From Vicinamibacterales bacterium (GTDB lineage Bacteria > Acidobacteriota > Vicinamibacteria > Vicinamibacterales > 2-12-FULL-66-21): a stretch of 64,000 nt of DNA. The position numbers were made by a program, and so were the translations under genes. The stretch lies in contig DATAEE010000391.1 of assembly GCA_036258175.1 (NCBI GenBank), positions 2,833 to 66,832 of the forward strand, written 5' to 3'. Under the pieces are notes generated by a model. The model saw only the letters and a program-made list of their open reading frames with translations. It did not search any database and was not told the DNA's origin. Below are positions 2,840-40,156 of this stretch, piece by piece (positions within the stretch are counted from its first letter, which is position 1; the number at the start of each line of letters is the position of its first letter).

Positions 2840-5212
2840 ATGACTCGACCCCGATTGGCGATCTTTTCCGCGTGCGTGGTGTGCTTCGCCCTCGCGCAGA
2901 CGGGTGGCGCGCAGCGCATCACGAACGCCGTTCCTGACGTCGCGCGGCCGCTGCCGCTGTCGGCCGTCCGTCTGACGGGTGGGCCCCTCAAGCGCGCACA
3001 GGATCTCAACGGCGAGTACCTGCTCAAGCTTGAGCCCGATCGCATGCTCGCGTATTACAGGCAGCGCGCCGGCCTCGAGCCGAAGGCGGAGCCCTACGGC
3101 GGGTGGGATGGCGACGGCCGCAACCTCACCGGCCACATCGCGGGGCACTACCTCTCGGGCGTCAGCCTGATGTGGGCGGCGACGGGAGACGTGCGCTTCA
3201 AGGAGCGCGCCGATTACATCGTCAAGGAACTGAAAGAGGTCCAGGACAAACAGGCTGATGGTTTTGCCGGCGCGCTGGCAAAGGTCAAAGAGGCATTTGC
3301 GGAAGTGGGCAAGGGAAACATCCGTTCGGCCAGCTTCGATCTGAATGGCCTCTGGTCACCGTGGTACACGCTGCACAAGACCTACGCCGGCCTGCGGGAT
3401 GCGTATCGGTACACCGGCAACCGGACAGCGCTCGACGTCGAGATCGGATTCGCGACGTGGGCGGAAGCGATGCTCGCGCCGATGGACGATGCCCTGATTC
3501 AGAAGATGCTGAATACGGAGTTCGGCGGCATGAACGAGGTGATGGCGGACCTCTATGCCGACACCGGCGACAAGCGGTGGCTCACGCTCTCGTACAAGTT
3601 CGAGCACCGCGCGGTCCTCGATCCGCTCAAGCACCGCGAGGATCCGCTCGACGGCCTGCACGGGAACACACAGGTCCCGAAATTGATCGGATCGCTGTCC
3701 CGGTACGTGTACGCCGGGCAACCCGAGGACCGCACCGCGGCGGAGACCTTCTGGGATCGCGTCGCGCACCATCACACCTTCGCGAGCGGCGGGCATGGAA
3801 AAGATGAGTACTTCCGCGAGCCCGATCGTCTCGGCAACATCGTCGACGGGCGGACTGCAGAGACCTGCAACATCTACAACATGCTGAAGCTGACGCGTTC
3901 TCTTTTCGCGCTGAAGCCGGCCGTCGAGTACGCGGAGTTCCACGAGCGCGCGCTCTTCAACCACATCCTCGGATCGATTGATCCGGAGGACGGCGCCGTC
4001 TGCTACATGGTGCCGGTCGGGCGCGGCGTACGGCGCGAGTACCAGGACATGTTTCGTAGCTTCACGTGCTGCGTCGGCACGAGCATGGAGAGCCACGCGC
4101 TGCACGGACTGGGGATTTACTACGAGTCCGGCGATCGTCTCTGGGTCAACCTCTATGCGCCGTCGACCGCGGAGTGGAAGGCCGCGGGTGTCCGCGTCGC
4201 GATGGACACGACCTTTCCCGAAGGAGATTCGGCCACGTTGAAGGTGACCTCGGACGCGCCGAAGGCGTTCACGCTTGCGGTCCGCCGGCCCTCGTGGGCG
4301 AAGGATGGCTTCGCCGTCAGCGTGAACGGCAAGGCCGTCAAGGATCTTCCAGCCCCGGCGTCGTACGTCGAGCTCAATCGGACGTGGAAGAGCGGCGACA
4401 CTATCGCCGTGACGCTTCCGAAGGGCCTTGCGCTCGAACCGATGCCGGACAACGCGCGTCTTGCGGCCGTCATGTGGGGTCCGCTCGTGCTGGCCGGCGA
4501 TCTCGGCCCGGCGCCGCAGCGCCGCACCGACGTGCCGTCCACCGGCCCGCCGACCGACACACCGCCCAGACCGGACGTTCCCGCGCTCGTCACCGCAGGG
4601 AGACCGGTCACCGACTGGGTGAAGCCGGTCGCTGGCAAGCCGGGCACGTTCCGGAGCGACGGCGTCGGACGGAGCAAAGACGTCGAGCTCGTTCCTTTTT
4701 ATCGTCTGCATCGCCGGACCTACGCCGCCTACTGGGATCTCTTCACGCCGGCGGAGTACGAAAAGAGGATGGCGGAGCTCAGTGCCGAGCGCGAGCGGCA
4801 GCAGAAGCTGGAGGCGTCGAGCATCGCTTTCGTCCAGCCTGGCGGGCAGGAGGCCGAGAAGCCGTTCAATCAGCAGGGCGAGGAGACGTCGATCGTCCGC
4901 GCCGAGGGCCGGCCGGGCCGGCGTGCCGCGAAGTGGTTCTCGTACGATCTGACGGCGTCCGCGCAACCCAGGGCGCTCGTCGTCACCTACAACAGCGACA
5001 ACCGCAGGCCTCGGTCGTTCGACATCCTCGTCGACGGGCGGAAAGTGGGCGAGCAACGGATCGATCAGAGCAGCGTGTCGCGCTTCTTCGACGTCGAGTA
5101 CCCGTTGCCCGCAGATCTCGTGCAGGGCAAACAGAAAAAGCTCACCGTCCGCTTCGAGGCGACGGGCGGGAACGAGGTCGCGCCGGTGTTTGCCGTCCGT
5201 CTCATCCGGTAA
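2840..5212 (+). CDS. GH127 (DUF1680) beta-L-arabinofuranosidase-like glycoside hydrolase, secreted
   Basis: Signal peptide MTRPRLAIFSACVVCFALAQTGGA. Motifs GHIAGHYLSG, HGNTQVPKLIG, AETCNIYNMLKL and FTCCVGTSMESH match the HypBA1-type Cys-rich region. Confidence 0.85.
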   Translation: MTRPRLAIFSACVVCFALAQTGGAQRITNAVPDVARPLPLSAVRLTGGPLKRAQDLNGEYLLKLEPDRMLAYYRQRAGLEPKAEPYGGWDGDGRNLTGHIAGHYLSGVSLMWAATGDVRFKERADYIVKELKEVQDKQADGFAGALAKVKEAFAEVGKGNIRSASFDLNGLWSPWYTLHKTYAGLRDAYRYTGNRTALDVEIGFATWAEAMLAPMDDALIQKMLNTEFGGMNEVMADLYADTGDKRWLTLSYKFEHRAVLDPLKHREDPLDGLHGNTQVPKLIGSLSRYVYAGQPEDRTAAETFWDRVAHHHTFASGGHGKDEYFREPDRLGNIVDGRTAETCNIYNMLKLTRSLFALKPAVEYAEFHERALFNHILGSIDPEDGAVCYMVPVGRGVRREYQDMFRSFTCCVGTSMESHALHGLGIYYESGDRLWVNLYAPSTAEWKAAGVRVAMDTTFPEGDSATLKVTSDAPKAFTLAVRRPSWAKDGFAVSVNGKAVKDLPAPASYVELNRTWKSGDTIAVTLPKGLALEPMPDNARLAAVMWGPLVLAGDLGPAPQRRTDVPSTGPPTDTPPRPDVPALVTAGRPVTDWVKPVAGKPGTFRSDGVGRSKDVELVPFYRLHRRTYAAYWDLFTPAEYEKRMAELSAERERQQKLEASSIAFVQPGGQEAEKPFNQQGEETSIVRAEGRPGRRAAKWFSYDLTASAQPRALVVTYNSDNRRPRSFDILVDGRKVGEQRIDQSSVSRFFDVEYPLPADLVQGKQKKLTVRFEATGGNEVAPVFAVRLIR

Positions 5213-5414
5213 CGCGGATTTCACGGATCACGCGAGCCACGGATTTCACGGATGACGCGGTTTTTTCTTTGCCGCAGATTCACGCAGATAAACGCAGATA
5301 AGCAGGCAAGAAAGACAAGCGAAGTCCGGTTCTGCGTGCGTCCTGCGTGTATCTGCGGTTCTTGAATCCGTGTAATCCGTGGTTCGTGATCGGGATCTGC
5401 GAAATCCGCGGCTA
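5210..5414. repeat. Composite inverted-repeat element (CACGGAT-type outer arms plus GCAGAT-type inner arms) filling a convergent intergenic gap
   Basis: The left end is TAACGCGGATTTCACGGAT. The reverse complement of the right end is TAGCCGCGGATTTCGCAGAT. The inner arms CCGCAGATTCACGCAGATAAACGCAGA and TCTGCGTGCGTCCTGCGTGTATCTGCGG are imperfect complements. The two end triplets are the stop codons of the flanking genes. Confidence 0.7.
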
Positions 5415-7714
5415 GAGCGTGATCGAAACCGGCCGTCCCTGGAACACGACGGTCTTCGTCGTAGTCGCGCCGGCTATTCGGGCCTCGATGGTCCGCGGCA
5501 TCGGTGGCCGCATCCGTGATCCTGGCTCGAGCCGCAGCGTCAGGCGACGCGCGCGATCGTCCCACGCCATCGCGATCCCCATCCACTCGCCTTTGCGGTA
5601 ATCAAACGTCCGCCCGTCGTCCTCGTAGAGCGTGAACGTTCCGTCAGCACCCGGGTACACGCGCACCTCGAACGGCGCGTCGATCTTTTCTGCGGTGAAC
5701 TGCTTGACGGGGCCGAGCGGCAGGATCGCGCCGGCGCGGACATACAGCGGGATCGTGGCGAGGTCGACGGGGCGCTGAAGCTCGCGGCCGCCGTCGATGT
5801 CCTGGCCTGTCCAGAAGTCGTACCACGTTCCATGCGGCAGGTAGACCGACCGGGATCCCGCGCCTTTTTCGGTCACCGGCGCCACGAGGATGTCGCGGCC
5901 CCACAAGTACTCGTCGCCGCGCGCCGACGCGATGCGATCGTCCGGGTAGTGGAGCCAAAGCGACCGCATGATCGGCAAGCCAGAGCGGGTCGTCTCGCGG
6001 ACCACGCTGTACAGGTAGGGCAGCAGTCGATAGCGAAGCTCCAGGTACTTGCGGCAGATCGGCTCGACTGCGGCGTTTCGGAGCTCCGACGCATCCGGAT
6101 TTGCCGCGCCGCTGTAGTTCGGCGTGATGATCTCGTTCGGGCCCAGCTCGCCCGTGTTCCAGCCCCACGGCAGACGCAGATGCCAGCTGCGGCCGTGCGC
6201 GCGAAAGAGCGGGCAGAACGCGCCGAACTGGAACCAGCGCACGTGCAGCTCGCCGGTGTACTCCGCGGTCGGCACGAAGCCGCCGATGTCCGTTCCCCAG
6301 TACGGAATGCCGCTCAGCCCGGTGTTGATCGCAACCGACACGTGCGTGCGGAGCGTTTCCCACGTCGTGTAGACGTCGCCGGACCATAGAAACGCCGCGT
6401 AGCGCTGCATCCCGGCGTGTCCGTTGCGATGCAACGCGAACGGGCGCTCGTTCGCGCGCCAGAGTTGCGAGCCTTCCCAATACATGCGATGCCGCGCGAG
6501 CCGTGACGGCGCGTCCAGGCCGTCCCCTTGATCCGGCCACCAGCCGTCGGCGCCGATGTCGTAGAGCGGCTTGTGATACGGCCAGTAGCAGCTGACCTTC
6601 CGGTCGTCCGGCCATTTGCCGTCGGCCGTCCGCCCGCTCGGCAAACGGTCGGCGTCACTGCACGGATCCGCCACCGCGCCAGCCAGGCGCCGGCCCTCGA
6701 GGACGATGTGGAGGACGACCTTGAAGTTGAGATCGTGCAGCGTGTCGATCATCCGCTTCGGATCGGGGAAGTTGCTGGCGTTCCAGGTGAACTCGCCGTT
6801 GTTCGTGTTCCACCCGGACGGCGTGAAGCCCGTGCCGAGATAGATGAGCGCGTCGCACGGCAGCCGCTTCTCGCGGAACGTCCGCGCCACCTTCACGATT
6901 TCGTCCGGGCCGGCGAGCGTGCGGTGCGACTGAAGATAGCCGAGCGACCAGAGCGGCGGCATTTCCGGATGACCAGTCAGTCGCGCATACTCGGCCATCA
7001 CCTGGACCGGGTCACGTGCTCCAACGATAAAGAGATCGAGCGGCAGGCCGTCCGTCGCGGGGTCGAAGCGGGCTTCCGGGCCCGTGAAATCGAACGACCC
7101 CTGCGGGTGATGGATGAACATCGCCCAGCCTGCGGTGCCGACGAGCCACTGCACGGGCGCGCGGCCTCCGTGCGTGCGCAGCCGGTAACCGCCCGACCGT
7201 TTTTCATCGCATCGGTCGAGCCGCGGCGATCGAATTGCGGCCCGCCCTCGCCAAGACCAAGAAGCGGCCCGTCACCAATGGGGAAGCGCAGCGTGCCTTT
7301 CCCGGGATCGATCTGAAGTTGCTGGACCATCCGGCCGTCTGCAGCGTCCACGCGGACGGTCAGCGGGTCGAAGGAAATAGATACGTTGAACGCGCCGCAG
7401 CGAATGCGGTGACGGTCGCCTGGGGGCATCACTTTCGCCACGGGCGCCGACGATGATGTCGCTGGCTGCGCGAGCGCGCCGTCGAGCGGGACGGACAGGG
7501 TGCGCCCACGGCCGCGCGGGCTCACCGTCACCCGGACGCTGTGCTGTCCGGAGGGCGCGACGGCCACTTCGATCCCCGGGCCTTCAGCCGTGGGGACTCT
7601 GACGAGAGCGGCCGCGCCCGCCGCGCCGAAGGTCTTCAGGGCGTCGCGTCTCGAGATAAAGGGGACAGCTACCTTTTTCCGCACGCCGTAAAAAGGTGAC
7701 TGTCCCCTTTTCAT
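5412..7714 (-). pseudogene. GH31 alpha-glucosidase/alpha-xylosidase-like gene, interrupted by a frameshift near 7190-7205
   Basis: The C-terminal 580 aa (ORF 5412..7154) carry GH31 motifs WWPDQGDG, WSGDVYTTWETL, GIPYWGTDIGGF and FCPLFRAHG. The N-terminal ~170 aa lie in another frame, as the tail of the 999-aa shadow ORF. They read MKRG..SRRDALKTFGAAGAAALV (Tat-like) through LGLGEGGPQFDRRGSTDAMKNG. The frames overlap between 7160 and 7275, next to a T5 run at 7200-7204. Confidence 0.75.
7658..7710. repeat. 53-nt double-stem palindromic element, copy A
   Basis: AAAGGGGACAG-CT-ACCTTTTT, an 11-nt loop, then AAAAAGGT-GA-CTGTCCCCTTT. The outer stem is 11 bp and the inner stem 8 bp. The second copy is at 25690-25742. 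Confidence 0.8.
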
Positions 7715-7723
7715 TGGCCGCCT

Positions 7724-10204
7724 ATGGTAATACCTATCTCCATGTTGCGAAGCGCGCGATTCTGCCTTCCAGTGGTTGCGGCGCTGACGGTTCTTGGTGC
7801 GGCGCAAACGCCACCCGGCTCGGCACGCAGCCTGAAGCGTGACTATCCAGTCCAGCCCGTACCCTTCACGGCGGTGCACCTGACCGACGTGTTCTGGGCG
7901 CCGAAGATCGAGACCAATCGCACCGTCACGATTCCGTTCGCGTTCGAGCAGTGCGAGCGAACGGGCCGCGTGGATTTGTTCGAGCGGGCCGCGACGGTGC
8001 TGCGCGGTCAGCCGCTCGAGAACCGCCAGCCGCCCGGGTATCCCTTCGACGACACTGACGTCTACAAGGTCATCGAGGGCGCATCGTATACGCTCAGCGT
8101 CCACCCTGATCCGAAGCTCGACGCCTACGTCGATTCGCTCATCGCGAAGATCGCCGCGGCGCAGGAGCCGGATGGCTACATTTACACCACGCGGACCATC
8201 GATCCGCAGAACCCGCACAAGTGGGCGGGGAAGGAACGATGGGAGCTCGAGCGCGACGACAGCCACGAGCTGTACAACCTCGGGCACTTGTACGAAGCGG
8301 CCGTGGCGCATTACCTCGCGACCGGCAAGCGCACGCTGCTCGACGTCGCCATCAAGAGCGCCAACCTGCTCGTGAGCGTGTTCGGTCCGGGCAAACGGTC
8401 GATCTGGCCCGGCCACCAGATCACTGAGATGGCGCTTGCGCGGCTGTATCGCGTGACCGGCGACGAGCGCTATCTGACGCTCGCGAAGTTCCTGCTCGAC
8501 GAGCGCGGGCCGAATCCCGGCGAGAAAGTGAACCCGCGCGGGTTGGCCTACAACCAGGCGCAGCAGCGCGTGGTCGAGCAGACCGAGCCCGTCGGCCACG
8601 CCGTCCGCGCAACGTACATGTACTCCGGAATGGCGGATGTCGCGGCGTTGACCGGCGACGCCGCCTACATTAAGGCGATCGACACGATCTGGGAAAACAC
8701 CGTCGGCAGGAAGCTGTACATCACCGGCGGGATCGGCGCGACGGGCGCCGGCGAAGCGTTCGGCCACCATTACGAGTTGCCGAACATGACGGCGTACAAC
8801 GAGACGTGCGCGTCGATAGGGATGGACTACTGGAACCACCGCCTGTTCCTGCTCCATGGCGACGCGAAGTACATCGACGTCATGGAGCGGACGCTGTTCA
8901 ACGGCTTGATCTCGGGCGTGTCGCTGGACGGCAAGACGTTCTTCTATCCGAACCCGCTCGAGTCGAACGGCCAGCACGAGCGCAGCCCGTGGTTCGGCGT
9001 CGCTTGCTGTCCATCGAACATCACACGGTTCCTGGCGTCGGTTCCCGGCTACGTGTACGCAAAGCAAGGTGAGACGATCTACGTCAACCTCTTCGCGGAA
9101 AGCAGGGCTGAGATCGACGTGGGCGGCGGACGCGTGCTGAAGATCGTCCAGGAAACGCGATATCCGTGGGACGGCCTGGTCCACCTGAAGATAGATCCGG
9201 GAGCTGCGCGGTTCTTCGAGATCAAAGTACGCATCCCGGGCTGGGCGAGCGACAGGCCCGTGCCGAGCGATCTCTACCGTTTCTATACAGTGACGCGTGA
9301 TTCCTTGGTCCGGAGGCGGATGCTGATGGTCAACGGTGAGCATGTCTCGTTGAACCAGGCAAAGGGCTATGCAAGCCTCGCGCGAGTCTGGCGTGCCGGA
9401 GACACGATCGATCTGAACCTTCCGATGCCAGTCCAACGCGTTTTCGCGCACGACAGCGTTGAAGCCGATCGCGGACGCGTCGCGCTGCAGCGCGGACCGT
9501 TGATGTTCGCCGCCGAGTGGCCCGACAATCCGAACGGCCGTGTACGCAATCTGGTTCTGACGGACTCGACGCCGTTGACCTCTGAGTTCCGGCCGAACCT
9601 GCTGAATGGCGTGCAGGTGATCACAGGACGCGCCACTGCGCTCGCGTTCGACGAGAAGGGCGCCGTCACGAAGACGGAGCAGGACTTCACAGCCATTCCG
9701 TATTACGCGTGGGCGAACCGCGGACGCGGGCAGATGATCGTCTGGCTGCCGAACTCGGAGGCGAACGCGCGACCCGCGCCGTACCCGACGCTCGCGACGG
9801 CCGCAACGGTGACGACCTCCGGCCGGAAGAACCCGCGGATGATCAATGACGGCGAGGAACCTCCAGCGTCCGCGGATTCGTCGTCGTATTTCGACTGGTG
9901 GCCGACGCGTGGGACGACCGAGTGGGCCGAGATGACGTTCGCGAAGACAGCGACGGTCTCCGGCGTCGAGCTGTATTGGTTCGACGACACCGGCCACGGC
10001 CAGGTGCGCGTGCCCGCCTCCTGGCGCCTCTTATATAAGGATGGCGCCGAGTGGAAGCCCGTCGCCCCGAGCGGTCCTTACGGTGTCGCGAAGGACGCCT
10101 GGAACAAAGTGGCGTTCGCGCCGGTCACGACCACCGCCCTGCGCCTCGAAGTGACGATGCAGCCGCAGTGGTCCGCGGGGATCCAGGAGTGGAAAGTTCG
10201 CTGA
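7724..10204 (+). CDS. GH127 (DUF1680) beta-L-arabinofuranosidase-like hydrolase with a C-terminal discoidin/F5-8 type C-like module
   Basis: The likely true start is ATG 7742, giving signal peptide MLRSARFCLPVVAALTVLGA. Motifs are SHELYNLGHLYEAAVAHY, GHAVRATYMYSGM, YNETCASIGM and FGVACCPSNITRF. The C-terminus EWAEMTFAKTATVSGVELYWFDD looks like a carbohydrate-binding jelly-roll. Confidence 0.85.
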   Translation: MVIPISMLRSARFCLPVVAALTVLGAAQTPPGSARSLKRDYPVQPVPFTAVHLTDVFWAPKIETNRTVTIPFAFEQCERTGRVDLFERAATVLRGQPLENRQPPGYPFDDTDVYKVIEGASYTLSVHPDPKLDAYVDSLIAKIAAAQEPDGYIYTTRTIDPQNPHKWAGKERWELERDDSHELYNLGHLYEAAVAHYLATGKRTLLDVAIKSANLLVSVFGPGKRSIWPGHQITEMALARLYRVTGDERYLTLAKFLLDERGPNPGEKVNPRGLAYNQAQQRVVEQTEPVGHAVRATYMYSGMADVAALTGDAAYIKAIDTIWENTVGRKLYITGGIGATGAGEAFGHHYELPNMTAYNETCASIGMDYWNHRLFLLHGDAKYIDVMERTLFNGLISGVSLDGKTFFYPNPLESNGQHERSPWFGVACCPSNITRFLASVPGYVYAKQGETIYVNLFAESRAEIDVGGGRVLKIVQETRYPWDGLVHLKIDPGAARFFEIKVRIPGWASDRPVPSDLYRFYTVTRDSLVRRRMLMVNGEHVSLNQAKGYASLARVWRAGDTIDLNLPMPVQRVFAHDSVEADRGRVALQRGPLMFAAEWPDNPNGRVRNLVLTDSTPLTSEFRPNLLNGVQVITGRATALAFDEKGAVTKTEQDFTAIPYYAWANRGRGQMIVWLPNSEANARPAPYPTLATAATVTTSGRKNPRMINDGEEPPASADSSSYFDWWPTRGTTEWAEMTFAKTATVSGVELYWFDDTGHGQVRVPASWRLLYKDGAEWKPVAPSGPYGVAKDAWNKVAFAPVTTTALRLEVTMQPQWSAGIQEWKVR

Positions 10205-10330
10205 GCCACGGATGTCGCGGATCACGAAGCCACGGATTACACGGATTATTTCGCTACGGATTTCACGGATTCTTAAGGAACCGCAGATTCACGCAGATAC
10301 TATCTGCGTGAATCTGCGTCCATCTGCGGC
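10202..10330. repeat. Left arm of a composite inverted-repeat element (CACGGAT units plus a perfect GCAGAT hairpin)
   Basis: TGAGCCACGGATGTCGCGGATCAC begins at the GH127 stop codon. An 18-bp perfect stem, CGCAGATTCACGCAGATA/TATCTGCGTGAATCTGCG, lies at 10282-10318. Confidence 0.7.
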
Positions 10331-10507
10331 CGGACATCCAAGTTACGCCGATGCAGCCAAGACATGGCGCAGGTCGGAGGCGGCTCCTTGATCGTATCGA
10401 GACTTCGAACTCTGTGAAACCTAAGACCACCTTTGCATTAAAGAATCGCTTTGTCTGGATTGTTGCCTTCGTAGCTCGGGAGCCCACGGCCATGAGTAGG
10501 AGGGTGC

Positions 10508-10840
10508 GTGGAGACCACGATTGAGCTCGAGATCGCTGGCCTCGGTATCATCTTCTACTCGCCCTTCGCGGTCGCCCACATCCAGAAGGATGAGGAATAC
10601 ATAGAGGTTCACTTCTGGGAACCGCCGGATGTCGCCGCGCATGTCAATGCATGCACCATATCGGCCTTTGGGACCGGCGGTCCGGGCACGTTTGTCCTGC
10701 GGCTGTATGACGGCGAACTCGACGTTCAGGTTCTCAAGTCGGCGAAGGCAAGCGTCCGCCTCGGTATTGAGGTCCGTGACAGCACGCTGTGCTTTCGGGA
10801 TCTCTACGACCTCCGGTTCTTTTGCCAAACGAGGTACTAA
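10508..10840 (+). CDS. Hypothetical protein (110 aa) in a low-GC islet
   Basis: GTG start 6 nt after a strong SD, TAGGAGG (10495-10501). Local GC is lower (28/60 at 10381-10440). I recognise no family. The FGTGGPGTFVLRLYDGE stretch is only reminiscent of small beta-rich immunity/DUF proteins. Confidence 0.5.
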   Translation: METTIELEIAGLGIIFYSPFAVAHIQKDEEYIEVHFWEPPDVAAHVNACTISAFGTGGPGTFVLRLYDGELDVQVLKSAKASVRLGIEVRDSTLCFRDLYDLRFFCQTRY

Positions 10841-11016
10841 AAGACCAGGGCCTCTAAGAGCAAGTCAAACTGAAGGCCGAGCAGCATGGTGTCGAATTCG
10901 GAACCGCCGCCCCGCGGCGACTTGCCATGTAACGCACCTTAAGAATGAAGATGCTGCATCGGCTCGAGGCAACGTCGGTGGAAGCAACGGAGCCGCAAAG
11001 TGAACGTAGGTTTTCT

Positions 11017-11095
11017 GATCCGCGTAATCCGTGGCTCGTACGTGGAATCTGTGAAATCCGTGGCTCGTGGGTAGGATCCGCGAAATCCGCGGCTA
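11017..11095. repeat. Right arm of the composite inverted-repeat element (ATCCGTG units)
   Basis: The reverse complement of the end, TAGCCGCGGATTTCGCGGATCC, matches the left end at 10202 (17/19 over the core). The terminal CTA is the GNAT gene's stop codon. Confidence 0.65.
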
Positions 11096-11614
11096 CCGGA
11101 CCAGCGCCTTCTCGTACCGCCACACTTCCAACGGGAACGTACCGGCCGTCGTGTCCAACAGGCTGACAACTGTTCCCGCGAGGTGCCATCCGCGTTTTTC
11201 GTAGAATCGTGCGGCCCGGTTGTTGCCGATCGCGCACGCGAGCCAGGCGGTGTCGGCTCCGCTCCGCGCCAGCCGCGCCTCCGCGTCGTCAATCAATGCG
11301 GCGGCGACCCCTGATCCGCGTGCCGGCGCCGAGACGAAGAGCTGATAGAGCTCGTCACCCTTGATAGTGCAGAACCCGACCGGGGCGCCAACGGGCCCAA
11401 CGACTCGGACGTTCGGAAGATCGGCCCGGAGCCGTTGCCTGAAGCTCTCGAGAGTGCGGGCTCGCGTGAGCTCCTCGGGGACGATGCGCGCGTGGGCATC
11501 CTGCCAGGCTTCGTACCAGAGCTTCGCGAGAGCGTCGACCTCTGATTCTTCGGTGGCTCGTACTTCCATTGAAACGTCGACTCCAGCGTTGTGACCCGCG
11601 GCTGCGTATCGCAT
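11093..11614 (-). CDS. GNAT family N-acetyltransferase
   Basis: LFVSAPARGSGVAAALIDDAEARLARSG and NNRAARFYEKRGW form the acetyl-CoA binding motif A region. An alternative start is ATG 11569. Confidence 0.8.
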   Translation of the reverse strand: MRYAAAGHNAGVDVSMEVRATEESEVDALAKLWYEAWQDAHARIVPEELTRARTLESFRQRLRADLPNVRVVGPVGAPVGFCTIKGDELYQLFVSAPARGSGVAAALIDDAEARLARSGADTAWLACAIGNNRAARFYEKRGWHLAGTVVSLLDTTAGTFPLEVWRYEKALVR

Positions 11615-22656: not shown

Positions 22657-23841
22657 TTGACATCCGCCACTGGCAGTTACGCGGAGATACTGGCCGAACG
22701 CATCGAGGCCGAGCGCGTGAGGCTGGCCCAGGCCTGGCTCGACCGGCTCAAGACCGTGCTCTCGGTCGAGCCGAACGACGTCTTTCCAACCGACAGGCTA
22801 CTGGATCACATCCCTCTGCTGCTCGGGGAGATCGCCCGCTACCTGCGAGCGCCGAAGACCGAAGAGATCGCCGCGAACGCTGCCGTCATCGACAAGGCGC
22901 GCGAGCTGGGGCAGCTACGCCACGAGCAGAAAGCCTCGGTACACCAGATCCTGCGGGAGTACGAGCTGCTCGCAGAGATCCTGGAGAGTTTCGTCGCGTC
23001 GGAGACGAAGCGCCTCGATCTGGAGCCGGCGTCCTCCGTGTGCCTGGACGCGATGCGCAGACTGATGCGGTCGGTGCGCGCGCTGATGCGCACGACCGTC
23101 GACACGTTCGTCGGCGAATACACCGCAACCATCGAGGCGCAGACCGAGCAGCTCCGGAGCTATAACCGGATGGCCAGCCATGAGTTGCGCTCGCCTGTCG
23201 GCACGATCCTGGTCGCGGCGAGCCTGATCATCCGGGAGGACGTCCAACACGATCCCCAGCGGTGGGAGCGCATCGCAAGCACGATTCGGCGGAACGCGGA
23301 GCGTTTGAGCGTGCTGTTGAGCACGCTGCAGCGCGTCGCGCACCTCGACGAGGCGCTCGACGGCCCGAGCTCGCAGGTCGTCGAAGTGGCCTCGCTCGCG
23401 GAGGAGGTTGCGCGCCAGCTTCGGGAAATGGCGCAGGCCCGTCAAGTGGCCGTACGAGTCGATCCGGGGCTGCCTGTTCTACTGATCGATCCGGCGCGGC
23501 TCGAACTTGCCCTGCTGAACCTCATCTCCAACGGAATCAAGTACAGCGACCCGGCGAAGCCGGATCGCTTCGTCGAGATTCGCTTCGACGGCCAGTCGGA
23601 TTCGACCTGCACGATTTGCGTGCGCGACAACGGCCTGGGTATCCCAGACGACGCGAAGCCAGCGGTCTTCAAGCGGTTCTTCCGGGCACACGCCGAGCTG
23701 GACGACCGGCTCGGCATAGACGGCAGCGGTCTCGGCCTCGCCATAGTCGCCGAATGCGTGCAGGCGCTCGGCGGTGCGATCACCTGCGAGTCGCGCGCCG
23801 GCGAGGGCACGACCTTCTACCTCGAGCTCCCCGTCAAGTAA
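22657..23841 (+). CDS. Cytoplasmic sensor histidine kinase (orphan; no adjacent response regulator)
   Basis: H-box MASHELRSPVG. N-box LISNGIKY. DNGLGIP and GSGLGLAIV are the G-boxes. There are no TM segments. TTG start. Confidence 0.85.
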   Translation: MTSATGSYAEILAERIEAERVRLAQAWLDRLKTVLSVEPNDVFPTDRLLDHIPLLLGEIARYLRAPKTEEIAANAAVIDKARELGQLRHEQKASVHQILREYELLAEILESFVASETKRLDLEPASSVCLDAMRRLMRSVRALMRTTVDTFVGEYTATIEAQTEQLRSYNRMASHELRSPVGTILVAASLIIREDVQHDPQRWERIASTIRRNAERLSVLLSTLQRVAHLDEALDGPSSQVVEVASLAEEVARQLREMAQARQVAVRVDPGLPVLLIDPARLELALLNLISNGIKYSDPAKPDRFVEIRFDGQSDSTCTICVRDNGLGIPDDAKPAVFKRFFRAHAELDDRLGIDGSGLGLAIVAECVQALGGAITCESRAGEGTTFYLELPVK

Positions 23842-23847
23842 GTCTTC

Positions 23848-23929
23848 CATCGTCAATCGTCAATCGTCCCCAATCATCAATCGACAATCGCCGAACAATC
23901 GACAATCAACAATCCACAGTCCACAATGG
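23848..23929. repeat. Tandem array of ~12 degenerate heptamers (CAATCGN)
   Basis: CCATCGT CAATCGT CAATCGT CCCC AATCAT CAATCGA CAATCGC CGAA CAATCGA CAATCAA CAATCCA CAGTCCA CAATGG. It lies between the kinase stop (23841) and the lhr start (23933). Confidence 0.85.
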
Positions 23930-23932
23930 AGT

Positions 23933-26900
23933 GTGGCTCTCTCGCAATTTCATCCTGTCGTGGCGCGCTGGTTTGCCGAGACGCTCGGCGAACCGACGAC
24001 GGCTCAGGTCCGCGGGTGGGCGTCGATCCGCGAAGGCCGTCATGCGCTCGTGGCGGCCCCGACCGGATCGGGCAAGACACTCGCGGCATTCCTCGGCGCG
24101 CTCGACGATCTCCTTCAAGAAGGATTACGAGGCCCGCTGCCGGATGAGGTGCGAGTCGTCTACGTCTCGCCTCTGAAGGCGCTCAGCGCGGACATCGTCA
24201 AAAACCTCGGCGAGCCGCGGCGCGGAATCCGGGAGCTGGCGGAGGAGGCGGACCTCGACGCGCCGCGCATTACGGCGGCGGTGCGGACCGGCGACACGAC
24301 TCAATCCGAGCGCGCCGCGATGCTGCGTACGCCGCCGCACATTCTAGTCACGACTCCCGAGTCGCTTTACCTCCTGCTCACTGCGGAACGCAGCCGCGAG
24401 ATGCTCCGCACCGCGCGCATGGTCATCGTGGACGAGATCCACGCCGTCATCGGGACCAGACGTGGCGCGCACCTCGCGCTGTCGCTGGAGCGGCTCGAGG
24501 CATTGACCGAGGGGACGCTCCAACGCGTCGGTCTTTCGGCTACTCAGAATCCAATCGAAGAAGTTGCCCGGTACCTCATTGGCACCGATCGCACCGAGTG
24601 CGCCATCGTCGATGAAGGGCACCGCAGGGAAATGGATCTTGCGCTGGAGATCCCGCGGTCGCCGATCGAAGCGGTGATGTCCCACGAGGTGTGGGAGGAG
24701 TACTACGATCGCCTGACCGAGCTGATCGCGGCGCACCGGACGACGCTGGTGTTCGTGAACACGCGGCGTCTGGCGGAGCGGGTGGCCCGGCACCTCAGCG
24801 ACCGCTTAGGCGACACCGTCGTCACGGCGCATCACGGCAGCCTGTCGAAGGAGCGGCGGCTCGATGCGGAATCACGACTCAAAGGCGGTCACCTGAAAGC
24901 GCTCGTCGCGACCGCGTCCCTTGAACTTGGCATCGACATCGGCTCGGTCGATCTCGTCTGCCAGATCGGCTCGCCGCATCACATCGCGACCTTCCTGCAG
25001 CGCGTCGGGCGGTCCGGCCACAGCATCCATGGGCTGCCGAAGGGGCGGCTGTTTGCCGTCTCGCGCGACGACCTCGTCGAGTGCGCCGCGCTGGTGCGGT
25101 CGGTCAGGCGCGGCGAGCTCGACCGGATCGTGTCGCACGACGCGCCGCTCGACGTGCTGGCGCAGCAGGTGGTCGCTGAGTCGGCGTCCCGTGAGTATTC
25201 GGAGGACGAGTTGTTCGCGCTCGTGCGGCGGGCGTGGCCTTACCGCGCGCTCGAGCGGCGCGACTTCGATGCCGTGGTCAAGATGACGGCCGAGGGGTTC
25301 GCCACGCGGAGGGGCCGCCGCAGCGCCCTCGTCCATCGAGATGAAGTGAATGCGAAGGTGAGGGGACGTCGCGGCGCCCGCTCGCTCGCGATCACCTCGG
25401 GTGGCGCCATCCCGGAAGTGGCGGACTACCGCGTTGTGCTGGTCCCGGAGGACACGTTCATCGGCACGCTGAACGAGGACTTCGCGATCGAGAGCTCCGC
25501 CGGAGACATCTTTCAACTCGGCAACGCGTCGTGGCAGATCCTGCAGGTCGGCCCGGGCATCGTGCGCGTAGCGGACGCGAAAGGAGCACCGCCGACAATA
25601 CCGTTCTGGTTCGGCGAGGCGCCGGCGCGCAGCGACGAGCTGTCACGCTCGGTCAGCAATCTGCGCTCGGAAGTCGAGAGCGCGCTGGAAAAGGGGACAG
25701 CCCCCTTTTTACAAGAAACGGAAAAAGGTGACTGTCCTCTTTCTCCCGCCGCCGCGGAGCAGATCGTCGCGTACCTGGCCGACGGGCGGCGGGCGCTGGG
25801 CGTGCTGCCGACACAGGACACGCTCGTGCTCGAGCGCTTCTTCGACGAATCGGGCGGGATGCAGCTCGTGCTTCATGCGCCGTTCGGCAGCCGCGTGAAC
25901 CGCGCGTGGGGTCTCGCACTCCGCAAGCGCTTCTGCCGGCAGTTCAACTTCGAGCTGCAGGCGGCGGCCAACGAGGACGCCATCCTACTCTCGCTCGGGC
26001 CGCAGCACTCGTTCCCGCTGGCGGACGTGTTCCGGTACCTGCACCCTGCGACGGCGCGGGACGTGCTGGTGCAAGCATTCCTCGACGCGCCCGTGTTCCA
26101 GACGCGCTGGCGCTGGAACACCACGGTGTCGCTCGCGGTCCCGCGCAACCGCCACGGCAAGAAAGTCCCGCCGCAGCTCCAGCGCATGCTGGCGGACGAC
26201 TTGATGGCGGCGGTGTTTCCAGATGCGGCCGCGTGCCTCGAGAACATTCCGGGCGACCGGGAAATCCCGGACCATCCTCTGGTCAGTCAGACCGTTCGTG
26301 ACTGCCTCGAGGAGGCGATGGACTTCGAGACGCTGTCGGCAGTGCTCGAGCGGATCCATCGTGGCGAGTTGCGTCTCGTGTCGCGCGACACGCCTGAACC
26401 ATCACCGCTCGCGCACGAAATCCTGAACGCTCGCCCGTACGCGTTCCTGGACGATGCCCCGCTCGAAGAGCGCCGGACCCAGGCCGTCTATACCCGACGC
26501 GCGACGGAGCCGGCGTCCGGAGGAGACCTCGGCGCGCTCGACGTGGCGGCGATCGAACGGGTGCGCGACGACGCACGGCCAGAGCCGCGCGACGCCGACG
26601 AGCTGCACGACGCGCTGCTGACTGCAGGATTCCTGACGATGGGGGAGGGGGCCGCCTTCCAGCCCGAGCTGTTCGAGCCCCTGATTGCCGGTGGTCGGAT
26701 CACTCGCGTAGTGGCGCAGCCCTTCAGGGCTGCGGAAGCGGACTGGCTCTGGACAACAGCCGAACGGCTTCCCGAGCTGCTCGCGGTTCATCCGGGCGCG
26801 TCCCTCGATCCGCCGGTCATGCCCCCGGCATCGCGCACCGCACGAACCTGGAGGCGCGAGGAAGCGATCGTCGAGCTGCTTCGCGGCAGACTCACGGTTA

Positions 26901-28249
26901 CCGGACCGACGACGGCCGGCGAACTGGCGCAGTCCCTCGACGTCACCGAAGCAGAGGCGATGACGGCCCTCGAGGCGCTCGAAGCGGAAGGCGTCGTCCT
27001 GCGCGGTTTTTTCACGCCCGAATCCGCGCTGGAATGGTGCGATCGGCGGCTGCTCGCGCGAATCCATCGCTACACGCTCAATCGCCTTCGCGCGGAGATC
27101 GAGCCGGTGAGTCCGGCCGACTTCATGCGTTTCCTGTTCGTGTGGCAGCACGTGGACAAGACGACGCGTCTGAGCGGCCTCGACGGTCTGCGCGCGGTTG
27201 TCGGAGAGCTCGACGGGTTCGAACTGCCAGCGCGCGCGTGGGAGCGGTCGGTGCTTCCTGCGCGGCTCGATCGCTACGAGCCGTCGATGCTCGACCTGCT
27301 GTGCCTCACCGGTCATGTGGGATGGGCGCGTCTCTCCGCGGGATCAGTACCTGTGGCGGGCGTCAGCCCGATCGCGCTGTTTCTTCGAGAGCACGCTGAC
27401 GGTTGGCTGACGCTGCGCGCCGAAGGTGGTACGAGGCTTCCGCCTAGTCCGCCGGACGAGGAGCCATCGCTGACCCCGCTCACGCGCACCGTGCTGGGCG
27501 TACTCGTGGCGCGCGGCGCATCGTTCCTCAAAGAGATCGCAACGGCTTGCGCGATCGACGAGGTGACGGCTCGAAGCGCCGTCGGCGAGCTGGTCTCGGC
27601 GGGGCTCATCACGTCCGATGGCTTCGCCGGCCTGCGCGCGATCCTGCGCGCCCGGCGGCCGGATGCGGCCCGCGAACGCGGCGCCGATTCTTCAGGGCGC
27701 TGGTCGCTTCTTCGGCCACGGATCACAGCGGATGACGGACCACAGATCACCGCGGATCGTGAAGCCGCCGTGGAGGTCCAGGCCTGGGCGCTTCTGCGCC
27801 GGTACGGCGTCGTGTTCCGCAGGCTGCTCGCGCGGGAGACGAACGCGGCGCCGTGGCGCGAACTGGCCCGCATGTATCGCCGCCTCGAAGCCCGTGGCGA
27901 GATCCGCGGCGGCCGGTTCGTGAGCGGCATGTCCGGCGAGCAGTTCGCGCTCGGCGAGGCGGTCGAGCGGCTGCGCGAGGTTCGCCGTACGCCGGTCGAC
28001 GACACGCTCATTTCGATCAGCGCCGCCGATCCGCTCAACCTCGCGGGCATCGTGACGCCCGGCGACCGGGTGCCGGCGCGCGGCGCGAGCCGGATGGTCT
28101 ACCGCCACGGCGTACCGATCGCGGTGATGGAAGGGGACTACGTGCGGCCGCTCGTCGAGTACGATTCTTCGCTCGCCGGCGAGGTCGCAACCGCGCTCGC
28201 CGGTCGGAGAGTGCCCGCGGTCCTGAGCGGTTTCGTCGGACGGCACTAA
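23933..28249 (+). CDS. lhr: Lhr-family large ATP-dependent DEAD/DEAH-box helicase
   Basis: The probable GTG start at 23933 gives (M)ALSQFHPVVARWFAE. Motif I is APTGSGKTLAAFL. VDEIH, helicase C HHGSLSKERR, then NRAWGLALRKRFC and a long C-terminal domain follow. The track ORF start at 23774 runs through the heptamer array. Confidence 0.9.
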   Translation: MALSQFHPVVARWFAETLGEPTTAQVRGWASIREGRHALVAAPTGSGKTLAAFLGALDDLLQEGLRGPLPDEVRVVYVSPLKALSADIVKNLGEPRRGIRELAEEADLDAPRITAAVRTGDTTQSERAAMLRTPPHILVTTPESLYLLLTAERSREMLRTARMVIVDEIHAVIGTRRGAHLALSLERLEALTEGTLQRVGLSATQNPIEEVARYLIGTDRTECAIVDEGHRREMDLALEIPRSPIEAVMSHEVWEEYYDRLTELIAAHRTTLVFVNTRRLAERVARHLSDRLGDTVVTAHHGSLSKERRLDAESRLKGGHLKALVATASLELGIDIGSVDLVCQIGSPHHIATFLQRVGRSGHSIHGLPKGRLFAVSRDDLVECAALVRSVRRGELDRIVSHDAPLDVLAQQVVAESASREYSEDELFALVRRAWPYRALERRDFDAVVKMTAEGFATRRGRRSALVHRDEVNAKVRGRRGARSLAITSGGAIPEVADYRVVLVPEDTFIGTLNEDFAIESSAGDIFQLGNASWQILQVGPGIVRVADAKGAPPTIPFWFGEAPARSDELSRSVSNLRSEVESALEKGTAPFLQETEKGDCPLSPAAAEQIVAYLADGRRALGVLPTQDTLVLERFFDESGGMQLVLHAPFGSRVNRAWGLALRKRFCRQFNFELQAAANEDAILLSLGPQHSFPLADVFRYLHPATARDVLVQAFLDAPVFQTRWRWNTTVSLAVPRNRHGKKVPPQLQRMLADDLMAAVFPDAAACLENIPGDREIPDHPLVSQTVRDCLEEAMDFETLSAVLERIHRGELRLVSRDTPEPSPLAHEILNARPYAFLDDAPLEERRTQAVYTRRATEPASGGDLGALDVAAIERVRDDARPEPRDADELHDALLTAGFLTMGEGAAFQPELFEPLIAGGRITRVVAQPFRAAEADWLWTTAERLPELLAVHPGASLDPPVMPPASRTARTWRREEAIVELLRGRLTVTGPTTAGELAQSLDVTEAEAMTALEALEAEGVVLRGFFTPESALEWCDRRLLARIHRYTLNRLRAEIEPVSPADFMRFLFVWQHVDKTTRLSGLDGLRAVVGELDGFELPARAWERSVLPARLDRYEPSMLDLLCLTGHVGWARLSAGSVPVAGVSPIALFLREHADGWLTLRAEGGTRLPPSPPDEEPSLTPLTRTVLGVLVARGASFLKEIATACAIDEVTARSAVGELVSAGLITSDGFAGLRAILRARRPDAARERGADSSGRWSLLRPRITADDGPQITADREAAVEVQAWALLRRYGVVFRRLLARETNAAPWRELARMYRRLEARGEIRGGRFVSGMSGEQFALGEAVERLREVRRTPVDDTLISISAADPLNLAGIVTPGDRVPARGASRMVYRHGVPIAVMEGDYVRPLVEYDSSLAGEVATALAGRRVPAVLSGFVGRH
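25690..25742. repeat. 53-nt double-stem palindromic element, copy B (inside the lhr coding sequence)
   Basis: AAAGGGGACAG-CC-CCCTTTTT, an 11-nt loop, then AAAAAGGT-GA-CTGTCCTCTTT. The arms match copy A at 7658-7710, while the loop sequence is unrelated. Confidence 0.8.
26715..26734. repeat. REP-type hairpin CGCAGCCC-TTCA-GGGCTGCG inside the lhr coding sequence
   Basis: The core is the same as the intergenic hairpins at 21519, 37647 and 49343. It is translated as VAQPFRAAEA. Confidence 0.6.
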
Positions 28250-28278
28250 GCACAGATCGTCGATGCCTCGTGCCTTGT

Positions 28279-28398
28279 GCCGGGTGCCTGGTGCGAACGG
28301 GGTGCCGGGTGCCTGGTGGGTGCCTGGTGCTTGGTGAGTGCGTGGTGCACCCGGCACCCACCTGGCACCCGGCACCCCGCTCGCACCAGGCACCAGGC
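28279..28398. repeat. Long near-perfect hairpin built from GGTGCC/GGCACC units (51-nt arms, 18-nt loop)
   Basis: Left arm 28279-28329 against the reverse complement of 28348-28398 gives 47/51 identical by hand alignment. It begins 30 nt after the lhr stop and could act as a terminator or REP. Confidence 0.85.
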
Positions 28399-28547
28399 AT
28401 GTGGCACCAGGCACCCAGACGCCAAACAGCGATCGAATCGAATTCTCAAATCTTCGTCATCTCGAGATGTGATGGTGAGAAGATCATCGACATCATGCGG
28501 AGATTCTATGAATCGATCGCGAGCGCGCTCGCTATCATGCGTTCGCG

Positions 28548-35031: not shown

Positions 35032-35078
35032 ACCCGGAACCCATGGAACCTGTGGAACCCATGGAACCCATGGAACCT
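35031..35078. repeat. 9-bp-periodic tandem array of GGAACC units (reverse complement of the GGTTCC arrays)
   Basis: AACCCGGAACC CATGGAACC TGTGGAACC CATGGAACC CATGGAACC, in the ureA-ureB spacer. Confidence 0.85.
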
Positions 35079-38340: not shown

Positions 38341-39017
38341 AGGTTCCAGAGGTTCCTAAGGTTCCTGGGGTTCCTCAGGTTCCTGAGGTTCGAGGTTCTC
38401 GATGCGCCAAGATCGGTGTCGGCGGCCCGGTGGGTTCCGGGAAAACGGCGCTCCTCGATAGCCTGTGTAGGGCGCTGCGGGATCGCTACAGCATCGCGGT
38501 CATCACCAACGACATCTACACGTATGAAGACGCGGAATTCCTGATGCGCTCGGGCGCGCTGCCGCTCGAGCGGATTCGCGGCGTGCAGACCGGAGGATGT
38601 CCGCACACCGCGATCCGCGAGGACACGTCCATCAACCACGAGGCGATCGACGAGACGCTCGCGAAGTTCCCGGACGTCGAGATCCTGTTCCTCGAGTCGG
38701 GCGGCGACAACCTCGCCGCGTCGTTCAGCCCGGAGCTGGTGGACGTCAGCGTCTATGTCATCGACGTCGCCGGCGGCGACAAAGTGCCGCGCAAGGGTGG
38801 TCCTGGCGTGACGCGCAGCGATCTCCTCGTCATCAACAAGACCGACCTGGCGCCGTACGTCGGCGCGGACCTCGGCGTGATGGCGCACGACGCCGCAAAG
38901 ATGCGTGGCGAGAAGCCCGTCGTGTTCACAAACCTGAAAACCGGCGACGGCCTCGACGGAGTGATCGCGTGGATCCAGCGGGAGGTCTTGTTCGAGGATG
39001 CGGTCAGATCGCGTTGA
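38337..39017 (+). CDS. ureG: Urease accessory GTPase UreG with a repeat-encoded N-terminal extension
   Basis: ATGA overlap with ureF. P-loop [11 protein letters not shown], then ESGGDNL and INKTDL. The first ~20 codons ([17 protein letters not shown]) are the GGTTCC array. Confidence 0.95.
38341..38399. repeat. 9-bp-periodic tandem array of GGTTCC units inside the ureG 5' coding region
   Basis: AGGTTCCAG AGGTTCCTA AGGTTCCTG GGGTTCCTC AGGTTCCTG AGGTTCGAGGTTCTC. Confidence 0.85.
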
Positions 39018-39804: not shown

Positions 39805-40156
39805 CCACGGATTACCGCGGATCTCAAAACAGCCACGGATCGGATTTTTCTAACCACAGATGAACGCAGATTCACGCAGATCGGAATCTGCGTGGCGCAC
39901 GCTCGGAGCGGCCGGCGGAGCCGGCCGCCTGGCTGGGACTGCGTAGCCACGGCCGTGAGACAAAGGCTCGTGTTGAACGTCTCACGGTCGTGGCTACGCA
40001 GTCCCAGCCTTCGCGCCTGCGGCGCGACCGAGCGGCGCCCTGGGTTGATCTGCGGTTCTTTAAATCCGTGAAATCCGTGAAATCCGTGGTTTCGTGATCC
40101 GAGATCAGTGGTGATCCGTGGCTTCGTGATCCGAGATCCGTGGTGATCCGTGGCTA
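39802..40156. mobile_element. MITE-like composite palindromic element (355 bp) with 24-bp terminal inverted repeats and a central 31-bp-stem hairpin
   Basis: Left end TAGCCACGGATTACCGCGGATCTC against the reverse complement of the right end TAGCCACGGATCACCACGGATCTC gives 22/24. The central arms at 39931-39961 and 39979-40009 are 30/31 complementary. There is an inner CACGCAGAT/ATCTGCGTG hairpin and ATCCGTG tandem units. It has no coding capacity. Confidence 0.55.

Follow-up and report, generated by a model that had tools for sequence, protein, structure and literature searches.

We analyzed a 64,000-nucleotide stretch of DNA from a Vicinamibacterales bacterium (contig DATAEE010000391.1; 'the window' throughout), in which two convergent genes, for a GH127 beta-L-arabinofuranosidase and a GNAT acetyltransferase, are separated by a gap of 888 bp. 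Both genes are followed, directly past their stop codons, by arrays of short CRCRGAT repeats, and between the two arrays lies DNA of lower GC content with a 110-aa open reading frame (ORF). A preliminary description had taken this arrangement for one composite inverted-repeat element split by cargo carrying an orphan ORF. We consider it probable that the gap instead contains two independent gene-end arrays together with the remains of a variable gene region. Arrays of this type abut stop codons in sense orientation, are conserved above the synonymous rate, are shared across phyla and form the inverted ends of GxxExxY genes. Comparison of the sequences of this locus and its counterparts in relatives suggests that each arm belongs to its own gene and not to the other arm.

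Each array is a run of CRCRGAT units with a phasing of 9-10 nt that begins where one of the two genes stops and reads in the sense orientation of that gene. Because GH127 and GNAT converge, the two arrays are mutually inverted and able to pair if joined. In the history that we propose, the interval would combine about 370 bp of low-GC non-coding DNA with what is left, the 5' two-thirds, of a gene that was inherited vertically and encodes a ComJ-like fold, and the window would show this gene caught mid-loss, as an intermediate of an interval being emptied. Once emptied, as in the relative L293, such an interval would leave abutting arrays and with them a cargo-less palindrome like the two others in the window (5213-5411 and 39805-40153). 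This offers a concrete picture for palindromes between convergent genes, in which two sense-oriented arrays would collapse together once the interval empties. The GH127/GNAT locus should then be annotated neither as a transposon nor as a novel gene, since it would represent an ordinary gene being lost between arrays.

Two gene-end arrays and the same interval in related genomes

The five units of the left array span 10207-10270, right after the GH127 stop codon (TGA, 10202-10204). Those of the right array lie at 11018-11091 and, read on the minus strand, are CRCRGAT units in sense orientation directly past the GNAT stop (CTA on the plus strand, 11093-11095). The structural part of the preliminary description is borne out by these data: the arms coincide with the stop codons of convergent genes, the left arm is of CACGGAT type (five CRCGGAT units) and the right arm of ATCCGTG type (six ATCYGYG units), the 18-bp GCAGAT hairpin is perfect, and the ends match as inverted repeats at 18/20 and 18/19, for a claimed core of 17/19. 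The arms had also been said to share their termini with cargo-less copies, and the halves of those copies are indeed made of the same kind of sequence. Coordinates are collected in Table 1.

Table 1. Features of the GH127/GNAT locus and the two cargo-less copies, in positions of the window.
Feature	Position	Strand	Description
GH127 beta-L-arabinofuranosidase gene	7724..10204	+	Pfam PF07944/PF20736/PF20737, E 1e-115
Left array	10205..10281	+	Five CRCGGAT heptamers, 24-nt super-period, inner spacer TTCTTAAGGAAC; GH127 sense orientation
GCAGAT-unit hairpin	10282..10329		Stem of 18 bp (10282-10299/10301-10318), perfectly paired; a third ATCTGCG unit in addition
Segment a, non-coding	10331..10504		174 bp, 54.6% GC; AGGAGG ribosome-binding site at its end, 10498-10503
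110-aa ORF	10508..10840	+	5' 101 codons (to 10810) of a ~166-aa family, then 9 unrelated codons and stop
Segment c, non-coding	10811..11008		198 bp, 55.6% GC; stands where the 3' third of the ORF gene would be
Right array	11009..11092	-	Spacer GGTTTTCTG and six ATCYGYG units, 29-nt super-period
GNAT acetyltransferase gene	11093..11614	-	Pfam PF00583; C-terminus ..ALVR*
Cargo-less copy	5213..5411		Between convergent GH127-paralogue and GH31 genes
Cargo-less copy	39805..40153		Between convergent UreD and PALP-enzyme genes

Orthologues of the GNAT gene led to five more contigs from relatives (L294 and L295 were grouped with L293), and GH127 orthologues are present in L005, L293 and L296-L298. Synonymous divergence (dS) from the window over the C-terminal region of GH127 is 0.11 for L293, 0.62 for L297 and 0.72 for L005. 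The GNAT-side array is found in all six relatives, whether the number of intervening genes is 0 (L293), 1-2 (as in the window and L005) or 3-6 (L296-L298), and the GH127-side array stands directly past the stop codon in the window, L293, L296, L297 and L298. The intervening genes of L296, L297 and L298 encode a 392-aa protein, DUF2161, DinB and SnoaL_2 proteins and small ORFs; here the GH127-side array is again in sense orientation, and the GNAT-side array has eight units without a partner arm in L296 and L297 and one unit in L298. Between the window and L297 the left arm is identical at 44 of 46 positions, compared with a third-codon identity of 68% (P about 5e-6).

Two further states of the interval complete this series. 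In L005 (GH127 87% identical) a full-length version of the ORF, ORF166, starts 4 nt past the GH127 stop with no arm between, and the 3' end of GNAT comes ~300 bp further on; the interval also has a remnant of ~150 bp and a GNAT-side array of 2 units, and the site lacks the left arm and segment a together. In L293 (with L294 and L295) the interval is reduced to a 156-bp cargo-less palindrome, with no ORF and no segment a or c. The first 47 nt of its GH127-side array are identical to 10202-10248 and the orthologous GCAGAT hairpin is present; its GNAT-side array is present but remodelled. The window itself, with segment a, the truncated ORF, segment c and both arrays, has a GNAT array of the ancestral type.

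This ancestry can be read from the GNAT side. The arrays closest in sequence to the right arm of the window are those on the GNAT side of L296 and L297 (scores 77 and 63), whereas that of L293 scores 48 and 39. Similarly, the GNAT C-terminus of the window resembles those of the outgroups (..SLVR*, ..TLTR*), while L293 ends in ..ALTC* in a GNAT that is otherwise near-identical to that of the window (dS 0.038). Since the GNAT end and right arm of the window are outgroup-like and those of L293 are remodelled, the compact palindrome appears derived and the separated arms older. The preliminary description had proposed a comparison of this gap in related genomes, and the comparison does reveal a cargo-less state in L293, but as the derived state, the split one being the older. 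An insertion into a resident element, one of the two histories it had suggested, would therefore have the polarity backwards: the arrays are conserved at their own genes with 3-6 genes between them, and the window end is ancestral.

A version of that history nevertheless deserves to be weighed. In it, an intact L293-like palindrome, perhaps when a break at the hairpin was repaired, would have taken up ~680 bp between its ATCTGCGG unit and its GGTTTTCTG spacer, with segments a and c on either side of a 3'-truncated ORF166. We judge such a secondary insertion unlikely, and the following observations, some of which it would explain well, are those that weigh against two independent arrays. The closest relative, L293, holds the orthologous arms, identical over the first 47 nt, as exactly such an intact element. 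When the arms of the window are joined in silico, they fold with -124.9 kcal/mol (z = -10.5), are colinear with the cargo-less copy at 5213-5411, restore the canonical layout (A array, then GCAGAT hairpin, spacer and a second A array), and show a single clean break point between ATCTGCGG and GGTTTTCTG; an insertion that hit an intact element would leave just such a picture. The interior (10331-11016, 686 bp) is the lowest-GC such stretch in the 64 kb. Segments a and c showed no similarity among ~300 fetched loci, the interval genes of relatives or GxxExxY proteins, are not enriched in degenerate repeat units, and are unmatched at the locus in relatives; segment a matched only the same-strain contigs L001-L004 and is absent in L005 and L293. 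A CTGCGG unit precedes the spacer in both cargo-less copies of the window, in L005 and in L297, and is missing from the right arm of the window. As for relatives, L005 has no GH127-side array, so one gain or loss of an arm must be assumed, and the ORF is absent from L293 and L296-L298, which requires several independent losses or a recombinational exchange of alleles. Finally, a promoter and terminator scan of the region found no sigma-70-like promoter and no U-tract terminator above the shuffled expectation.

Against a secondary insertion, the right arm and GNAT C-terminus are ancestral in the window and remodelled in L293, the arrays at both genes predate the split between the window and L293 and exist elsewhere with several genes between them, and L005 has, between the same neighbours, a full-length orthologue whose dS equals that of GH127. 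With this orthologue in place, a foreign origin of the ORF would need loss and then regain at the identical site. We therefore prefer two gene-end arrays flanking a variable interval.

The variable intervals of the relatives hold several smaller features. In L005, a 63-aa ORF at 3143-3334, between ORF166 and the GNAT-side array, ends in ..DILYNNAARFLRLGSR, like the C-terminus of an amidohydrolase-type protein, and is probably a further gene remnant; it has no match among the other relatives. At 7129-7652 of L297, in the orthologous position past the GH127 stop, an array of seven units and an inverted one of five enclose an uncalled 111-aa ORF with several hydrophobic helices, and the gene for the 392-aa protein comes next. 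In L296, at 4479-7796, nearly every small gene of the interval (SnoaL_2, a 75-aa ORF, DUF2161) is followed by a sense heptamer array of 3-9 units, and the gene caller places a 59-aa ORF over the GNAT-side array. The choice of start misleads gene callers as well: the GNAT gene of the window is 158 aa in public records and 173 aa as the longest ORF.

The gene between the arrays

Contrary to the preliminary description, the ORF is not an orphan: a homology search gave 62 homologues in the protein collection, with E down to 1e-53 and nearly all 160-185 aa long, and there are a further 79 homologous loci in metagenomes, the genomes ranging from 29 to 76% GC. The 110-aa frame does exist, with coding-like GC at the three codon positions (0.61/0.39/0.74), but as a 3'-truncated copy. 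Homology is confined to residues 1-101 and ends ..FRDLYD at 10810, so that the last ~65 residues, including the invariant W105 and P152 and three C-terminal strands, are lacking; a search of all other frames downstream showed that the missing C-terminus is not encoded there. The window copy is probably a truncated, recent pseudogene. Of the proposed TAGGAGG-N6-GTG start, the AGGAGG (10498-10503) is present, but 4 nt upstream of the GTG rather than 6.

Full-length members of the family have no match in Pfam, NCBIfam or the sequences of the PDB, and none of 56 members matched any Pfam profile, including the ComJ profile PF11033, at E <= 1. An AlphaFold2 model of the full-length family has a mean confidence (pLDDT) of 94.3, and in a Foldseek search its only significant neighbours were ComJ (4mqd, E 8e-7) and CgnJ (6i86, 1e-6), both with probability 1.0; overall, the matches to ComJ and CgnJ had E values of 8e-7 to 2e-6 and TM-scores of 0.51-0.64. 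The family is thus predicted to have a ComJ/CgnJ-like fold with no similarity to ComJ at the level of sequence. ComJ is the inhibitor of the NucA nuclease of B. subtilis. The likeness lies in the predicted fold of the full-length family, and the window copy differs further in lacking the last ~65 residues.

Between the window and L005 the ORF has a dS of 0.68 and a dN/dS of 0.14, and GH127 a dS of 0.65 and a dN/dS of 0.11. Since the two dS values are equal, ORF and GH127 were inherited together, with purifying selection on the ORF until recently. The preliminary description had also noted the low GC between the arms. Its counts (28/60 at 10381-10440 and 41/60 at 10081-10140) are exact, and the difference extends to the whole interior, at 56.7% GC versus 66% for the window. 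However, the full-length copy of L005 has 61% GC and the gene ~60% in both genomes, which makes low GC partly a trait of the ORF family, and the arms themselves are at 52-58% GC. The comparison with L005 indicates that the ORF is resident and inherited, neither foreign nor the cargo of an element.

It remains to consider that the arms are terminal inverted repeats of a transposable unit and the ComJ-like gene its passenger, which was the second suggestion of the preliminary description. In favour of this, the same type of array brackets GxxExxY genes of several phyla as near-perfect 29-nt inverted ends (see below), the GH127-side arm and an inverted partner bracket the membrane ORF of L297, and a 105-aa ORF is bracketed by arrays in locus L155. 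In addition, protein P0002, which is 85% identical to the window ORF and full length, has the C-terminus ..WIRVIRAIRGS and 280 bp of uncalled DNA upstream. Its tail is a translation of ATCCGTG units, into which the protein runs straight on for 16 residues, and its locus is probably arm, full-length ORF, arm.

Outside the clade, however, ~50 loci of ORF homologues in other organisms have no heptamer units nearby and no inverted repeat of at least 12 nt within 400 nt. The ORF stays between GH127 and GNAT in L005 without the left arm, the arms persist at their own genes in L293 and L296-L298 without the ORF, and the window contains no second copy of an arm-ORF-arm unit. The two arms of the locus are not mutual best matches; neither are the arms of intact elements, so that this comparison does not discriminate. 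We regard a mobile unit with this passenger as highly improbable. A capacity to bracket small genes does exist elsewhere in the repeat family, in the case of GxxExxY, but does not extend to the ORF of the window, for which inheritance between two gene-end arrays remains the preferred history.

A repeat family across phyla and its possible link to GxxExxY genes

A 17-mer taken from the arrays, ATCCGTGAAATCCGTGG, was used as a probe and matched at least 119 genome stretches, plus 65 IMG/VR stretches. By chance, about 70 matches to a 17-mer would be expected over all 596 Gb of the collection; those recorded lie within arrays, which shows that they are not due to chance. The rules that follow were drawn from the 119 genome loci and 65 viral-contig loci listed, and hold among these matches. 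The 17-mer occurs in Verrucomicrobiota, Acidobacteriota, Planctomycetota, Bacteroidota and Ignavibacteriales, as well as in Azospirillum and Phenylobacterium (Alphaproteobacteria), Leptospirales, Lentisphaerae and others; in total, over 10 phyla, low-GC Bacteroidota among them, have identical 17-mers, as do viral contigs. Units are spaced by 9 nt in 278 cases and by 10 nt in 84, most phyla have 2-3 units per array, and the consensus of the outer end is TTAACCACGGAT.

Orientation follows a strict rule. Inverted pairs have the order CACGGAT...ATCCGTG (+/-) in 78 cases and the order -/+ in 4. They adjoin the stops of long ORFs on both sides in 12% versus 0.5% at random, and on one side in 45% versus 13%. 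Solitary arrays past a stop codon are in sense rather than antisense orientation at 27:6 (P about 3e-4). No Rfam family was found, in gathering-score or E-value mode, for the elements of the window or for 18 loci from other phyla, and the repeat strings of the arrays were not found in any relevant paper of the searchable literature; a survey of repetitive extragenic palindromes (PMC3733652) does not cover the CRCRGAT type. CRCRGAT arrays are therefore a repeat family of many phyla that is found neither in Rfam nor in the searchable literature. Its heptamer array, for which both the position at stop codons and the strand follow a strict rule, recurs nearly letter for letter in Acidobacteriota, Verrucomicrobiota, Planctomycetota, Bacteroidota, Alphaproteobacteria and others. 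A practical consequence is that gene callers extend ORFs into the arrays, creating tails like ..IRVIRAIRGS and spurious small ORFs. The twoAYGGAY RNA motif was also considered as an identity for the arrays and is unsupported by Rfam.

Pairs of arrays 300-550 bp apart repeatedly enclose a gene for a GxxExxY protein (TIGR04256; PF13366, PD-(D/E)XK-like), with E values of 1e-35 to 1e-42. Within the searchable literature, papers that name GxxExxY do not treat repeats. All six GxxExxY genes in loci selected by pattern are bracketed by inverted arrays. Two more, picked via protein search, lie between near-perfect inverted ends, AACCACGGATTTCACGGATGGGCACGGAT ... ATCCGTGCCCATCCGTGCAATCCGTGGTT, one inside an opp operon and the other between genes for an aldehyde dehydrogenase and an amidohydrolase. 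These inverted ends are ~29 nt long, and the start codon falls within the last unit. In locus L273 (1185-1740), an operon for an oligopeptide ABC transporter has a GxxExxY gene with CACGGAT-array ends between its two ATPase genes, and a second, gene-less palindrome of the CACGGAT family follows immediately.

We tentatively propose, as a possibility that we hold to be less probable than not, that CRCRGAT arrays are the cis sites of a cross-phylum selfish system, in which the GxxExxY protein (TIGR04256/PF13366, at least 8000 members) would deposit them in sense orientation at stop codons, where hosts would keep them as 3'-end signals. If true, this would be a partnership like that of REPINs and RAYTs (introduced below), built on a PD-(D/E)XK nuclease and not on an HUH transposase, and loci like GH127/GNAT would show palindromes being assembled from two gene-end arrays as the intervening genes vanish. 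Arrays at the ends of GxxExxY genes also give this very large family, whose function is unknown, a hypothesis that can be tested.

Several results count against this link. No GxxExxY gene is present in the window or in the sampled relatives, which makes the link associative. At 1440-1910 of L272, an IMG/VR contig, a GxxExxY gene is bracketed by a different 9-nt unit, CGCNAAAAG (CGCGAAAAG / CGCTAAAGA), yet its protein is 55% identical to a CACGGAT-flanked GxxExxY. None of the 65 IMG/VR stretches with the 17-mer has a GxxExxY gene beside it, and a protein-based scan gave this one viral locus only. In L272, translation of the arrays lengthens the protein at both ends, the N-terminus (..TAKDAKSAKE..) and the C-terminus (..FRDFSAFRGY).

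With regard to function, the arrays may be transcribed as the first bases of each 3' untranslated region (UTR). Read-through RNA at convergent junctions would then form a long hairpin that, along with the GCAGAT hairpin, could stop transcription or protect 3' ends in both directions, a proposed role at the RNA level. In the history that we prefer, the arrays may also owe their origin or their spread to a selfish element, of which the form with a gene would carry GxxExxY between such inverted arrays.

The arrays could also be host signals only, that is 3'-UTR or DNA signals such as protein-binding sites with no mobile history, their inversion being a by-product of convergence. The 27:6 sense bias of solitary arrays fits this account, as do the conservation of orthologous arrays far above the synonymous rate, the eight-unit solitary arrays, which cannot form hairpins, and other 9-nt-phased arrays (GGAACCNNN) that fill gene ends elsewhere in the window. 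A CANGGA core is bound by CsrA/Rsm proteins, and CACGGAU fits this consensus, but the GCAGAT and CACAGAT units have no GGA core. Identical 17-mers in more than 10 phyla and in viral contigs are hard to explain without horizontal spread, only 6 of ~45 gene ends in the window carry arrays, their presence differs between relatives (L005), and GxxExxY genes have arrays for their inverted ends, the last unit of which contains the start codon. A purely host-derived origin is thus quite unlikely in our view.

Known systems and other repeats of the window

Several known systems resemble the arrays in part, the first of those below most closely. Repetitive extragenic palindromes (REPs), organized as bacterial interspersed mosaic elements (BIMEs) or as hairpin-forming REP pairs (REPINs) and associated with a tyrosine transposase (RAYT), are also short multi-copy intergenic repeats downstream of genes, mainly convergent or co-directional ones (E. 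coli, Pseudomonas). They often form inverted pairs that fold into larger hairpins, and they include a small dedicated protein gene flanked by inverted repeats. The arrays share with them the location downstream of ORFs and the inverted pairs, but neither the unit nor the RAYT. A REP unit is an imperfect palindrome of 20-40 bp with a terminal GTAG or CGTC, whereas the arrays consist of non-palindromic CRCRGAT heptamers every 9-10 nt, in which GTAG occurs only where a TAG stop chances to precede GCC. RAYT is an HUH Y1 tyrosine transposase, whereas the array-bracketed gene encodes a ~125-aa GxxExxY PD-(D/E)XK-like protein, and the sampled loci showed no Y1_Tnp between their arms. Furthermore, a REP family is usually confined to one species or genus, in contrast to a 17-mer common to many phyla.

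Miniature inverted-repeat transposable elements (MITEs; Correia/CREE of Neisseria, RUP, Nezha) are likewise non-autonomous inverted repeats of 100-350 bp that fold into hairpins and are co-transcribed with neighbouring genes. They have longer gene-bearing relatives with shared ends, of which the GxxExxY genes with their ~29-nt array ends might be a counterpart if that protein acts as a transposase. In contrast to MITEs, there is no DDE transposase partner here, no target-site duplication was seen at 10204/11093 or 10330/11008, and arms occur singly at gene ends and are orthologously conserved, which is unexpected for the halves of a transposon. Nor does the locus behave as a composite element with a passenger: the ORF stays without the left arm in L005, and the arms stay without the ORF in L293 and L296-L298.

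The 23S rRNA intervening sequences of Leptospira and Coxiella contain a small four-helix-bundle ORF within long inverted repeats and are excised by RNase III. Their likeness to the locus is in this enclosed small ORF and in the stem that the repeats form in the transcript; they differ in lying inside rRNA genes, whereas the locus lies between protein genes and its ORF falls outside the intervening-sequence protein and GxxExxY families. Bidirectional intrinsic terminators also place a strong hairpin exactly between two stops, symmetric for both transcripts. The hairpins here, however, are ten times longer (156-350 nt), are built of shared repeats and have no U-tract, and at the GH127/GNAT locus the arms are 680 bp apart.

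Within the window, CACGGAT occurs 31 times, versus 11.6 +/- 3.1 expected, and clusters at three convergent gaps: 5213-5411, the GH127/GNAT gap and 39805-40153. All three non-trivial convergent gaps thus carry arrays, and the other four convergent junctions have a 4-nt overlap or a 16-nt gap. The copy at 5213-5411 has the order A array, GCAGAT units, loop, ATCTGCG units, A array, and folds into one 200-nt hairpin (-107.6 kcal/mol, z = -8.0). At the centre of the copy at 39805-40153 lies a nested, unrelated GC-rich palindrome (39893-40047, GGCTGGGACTGCGTAGCCACGGCCGTGAGAC ... GTCTCACGGTCGTGGCTACGCAGTCCCAGCC), which indicates that the centres of junction elements accept other repeats. Three convergent pairs share exactly 4 nt where their stop codons meet (45922-45925, 52592-52595 and 56219-56222).

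Other repeats were also observed. GGAACCCAT is repeated 4.7 times directly after a TGA stop at 35036-35077, AGGTTCCTG 5.7 times at 38341-38391, directly after the TGA at 38338-40, and GGGTTCCTG 5.8 times at a convergent junction, 52597-52646. All three are 9-nt-phased and look like a second array family with equal phasing and another core (GGAACC); some GGAACC-core arrays lie within mechanically called ORFs. The palindromic block at 28264-28416, made of GGTGCCTGG / CCAGGCACC units with periods of 7, 11 and 18, sits between the very large co-directional ORFs 23774-28249 and 28548-32969 and is a third repeat family with inverted arrays. The sole Rfam match of the window at gathering score is 5_ureB_sRNA (35603-35893, minus strand, 76 bits), antisense within the urease cluster, which may reflect mere conservation of the ureB coding sequence.

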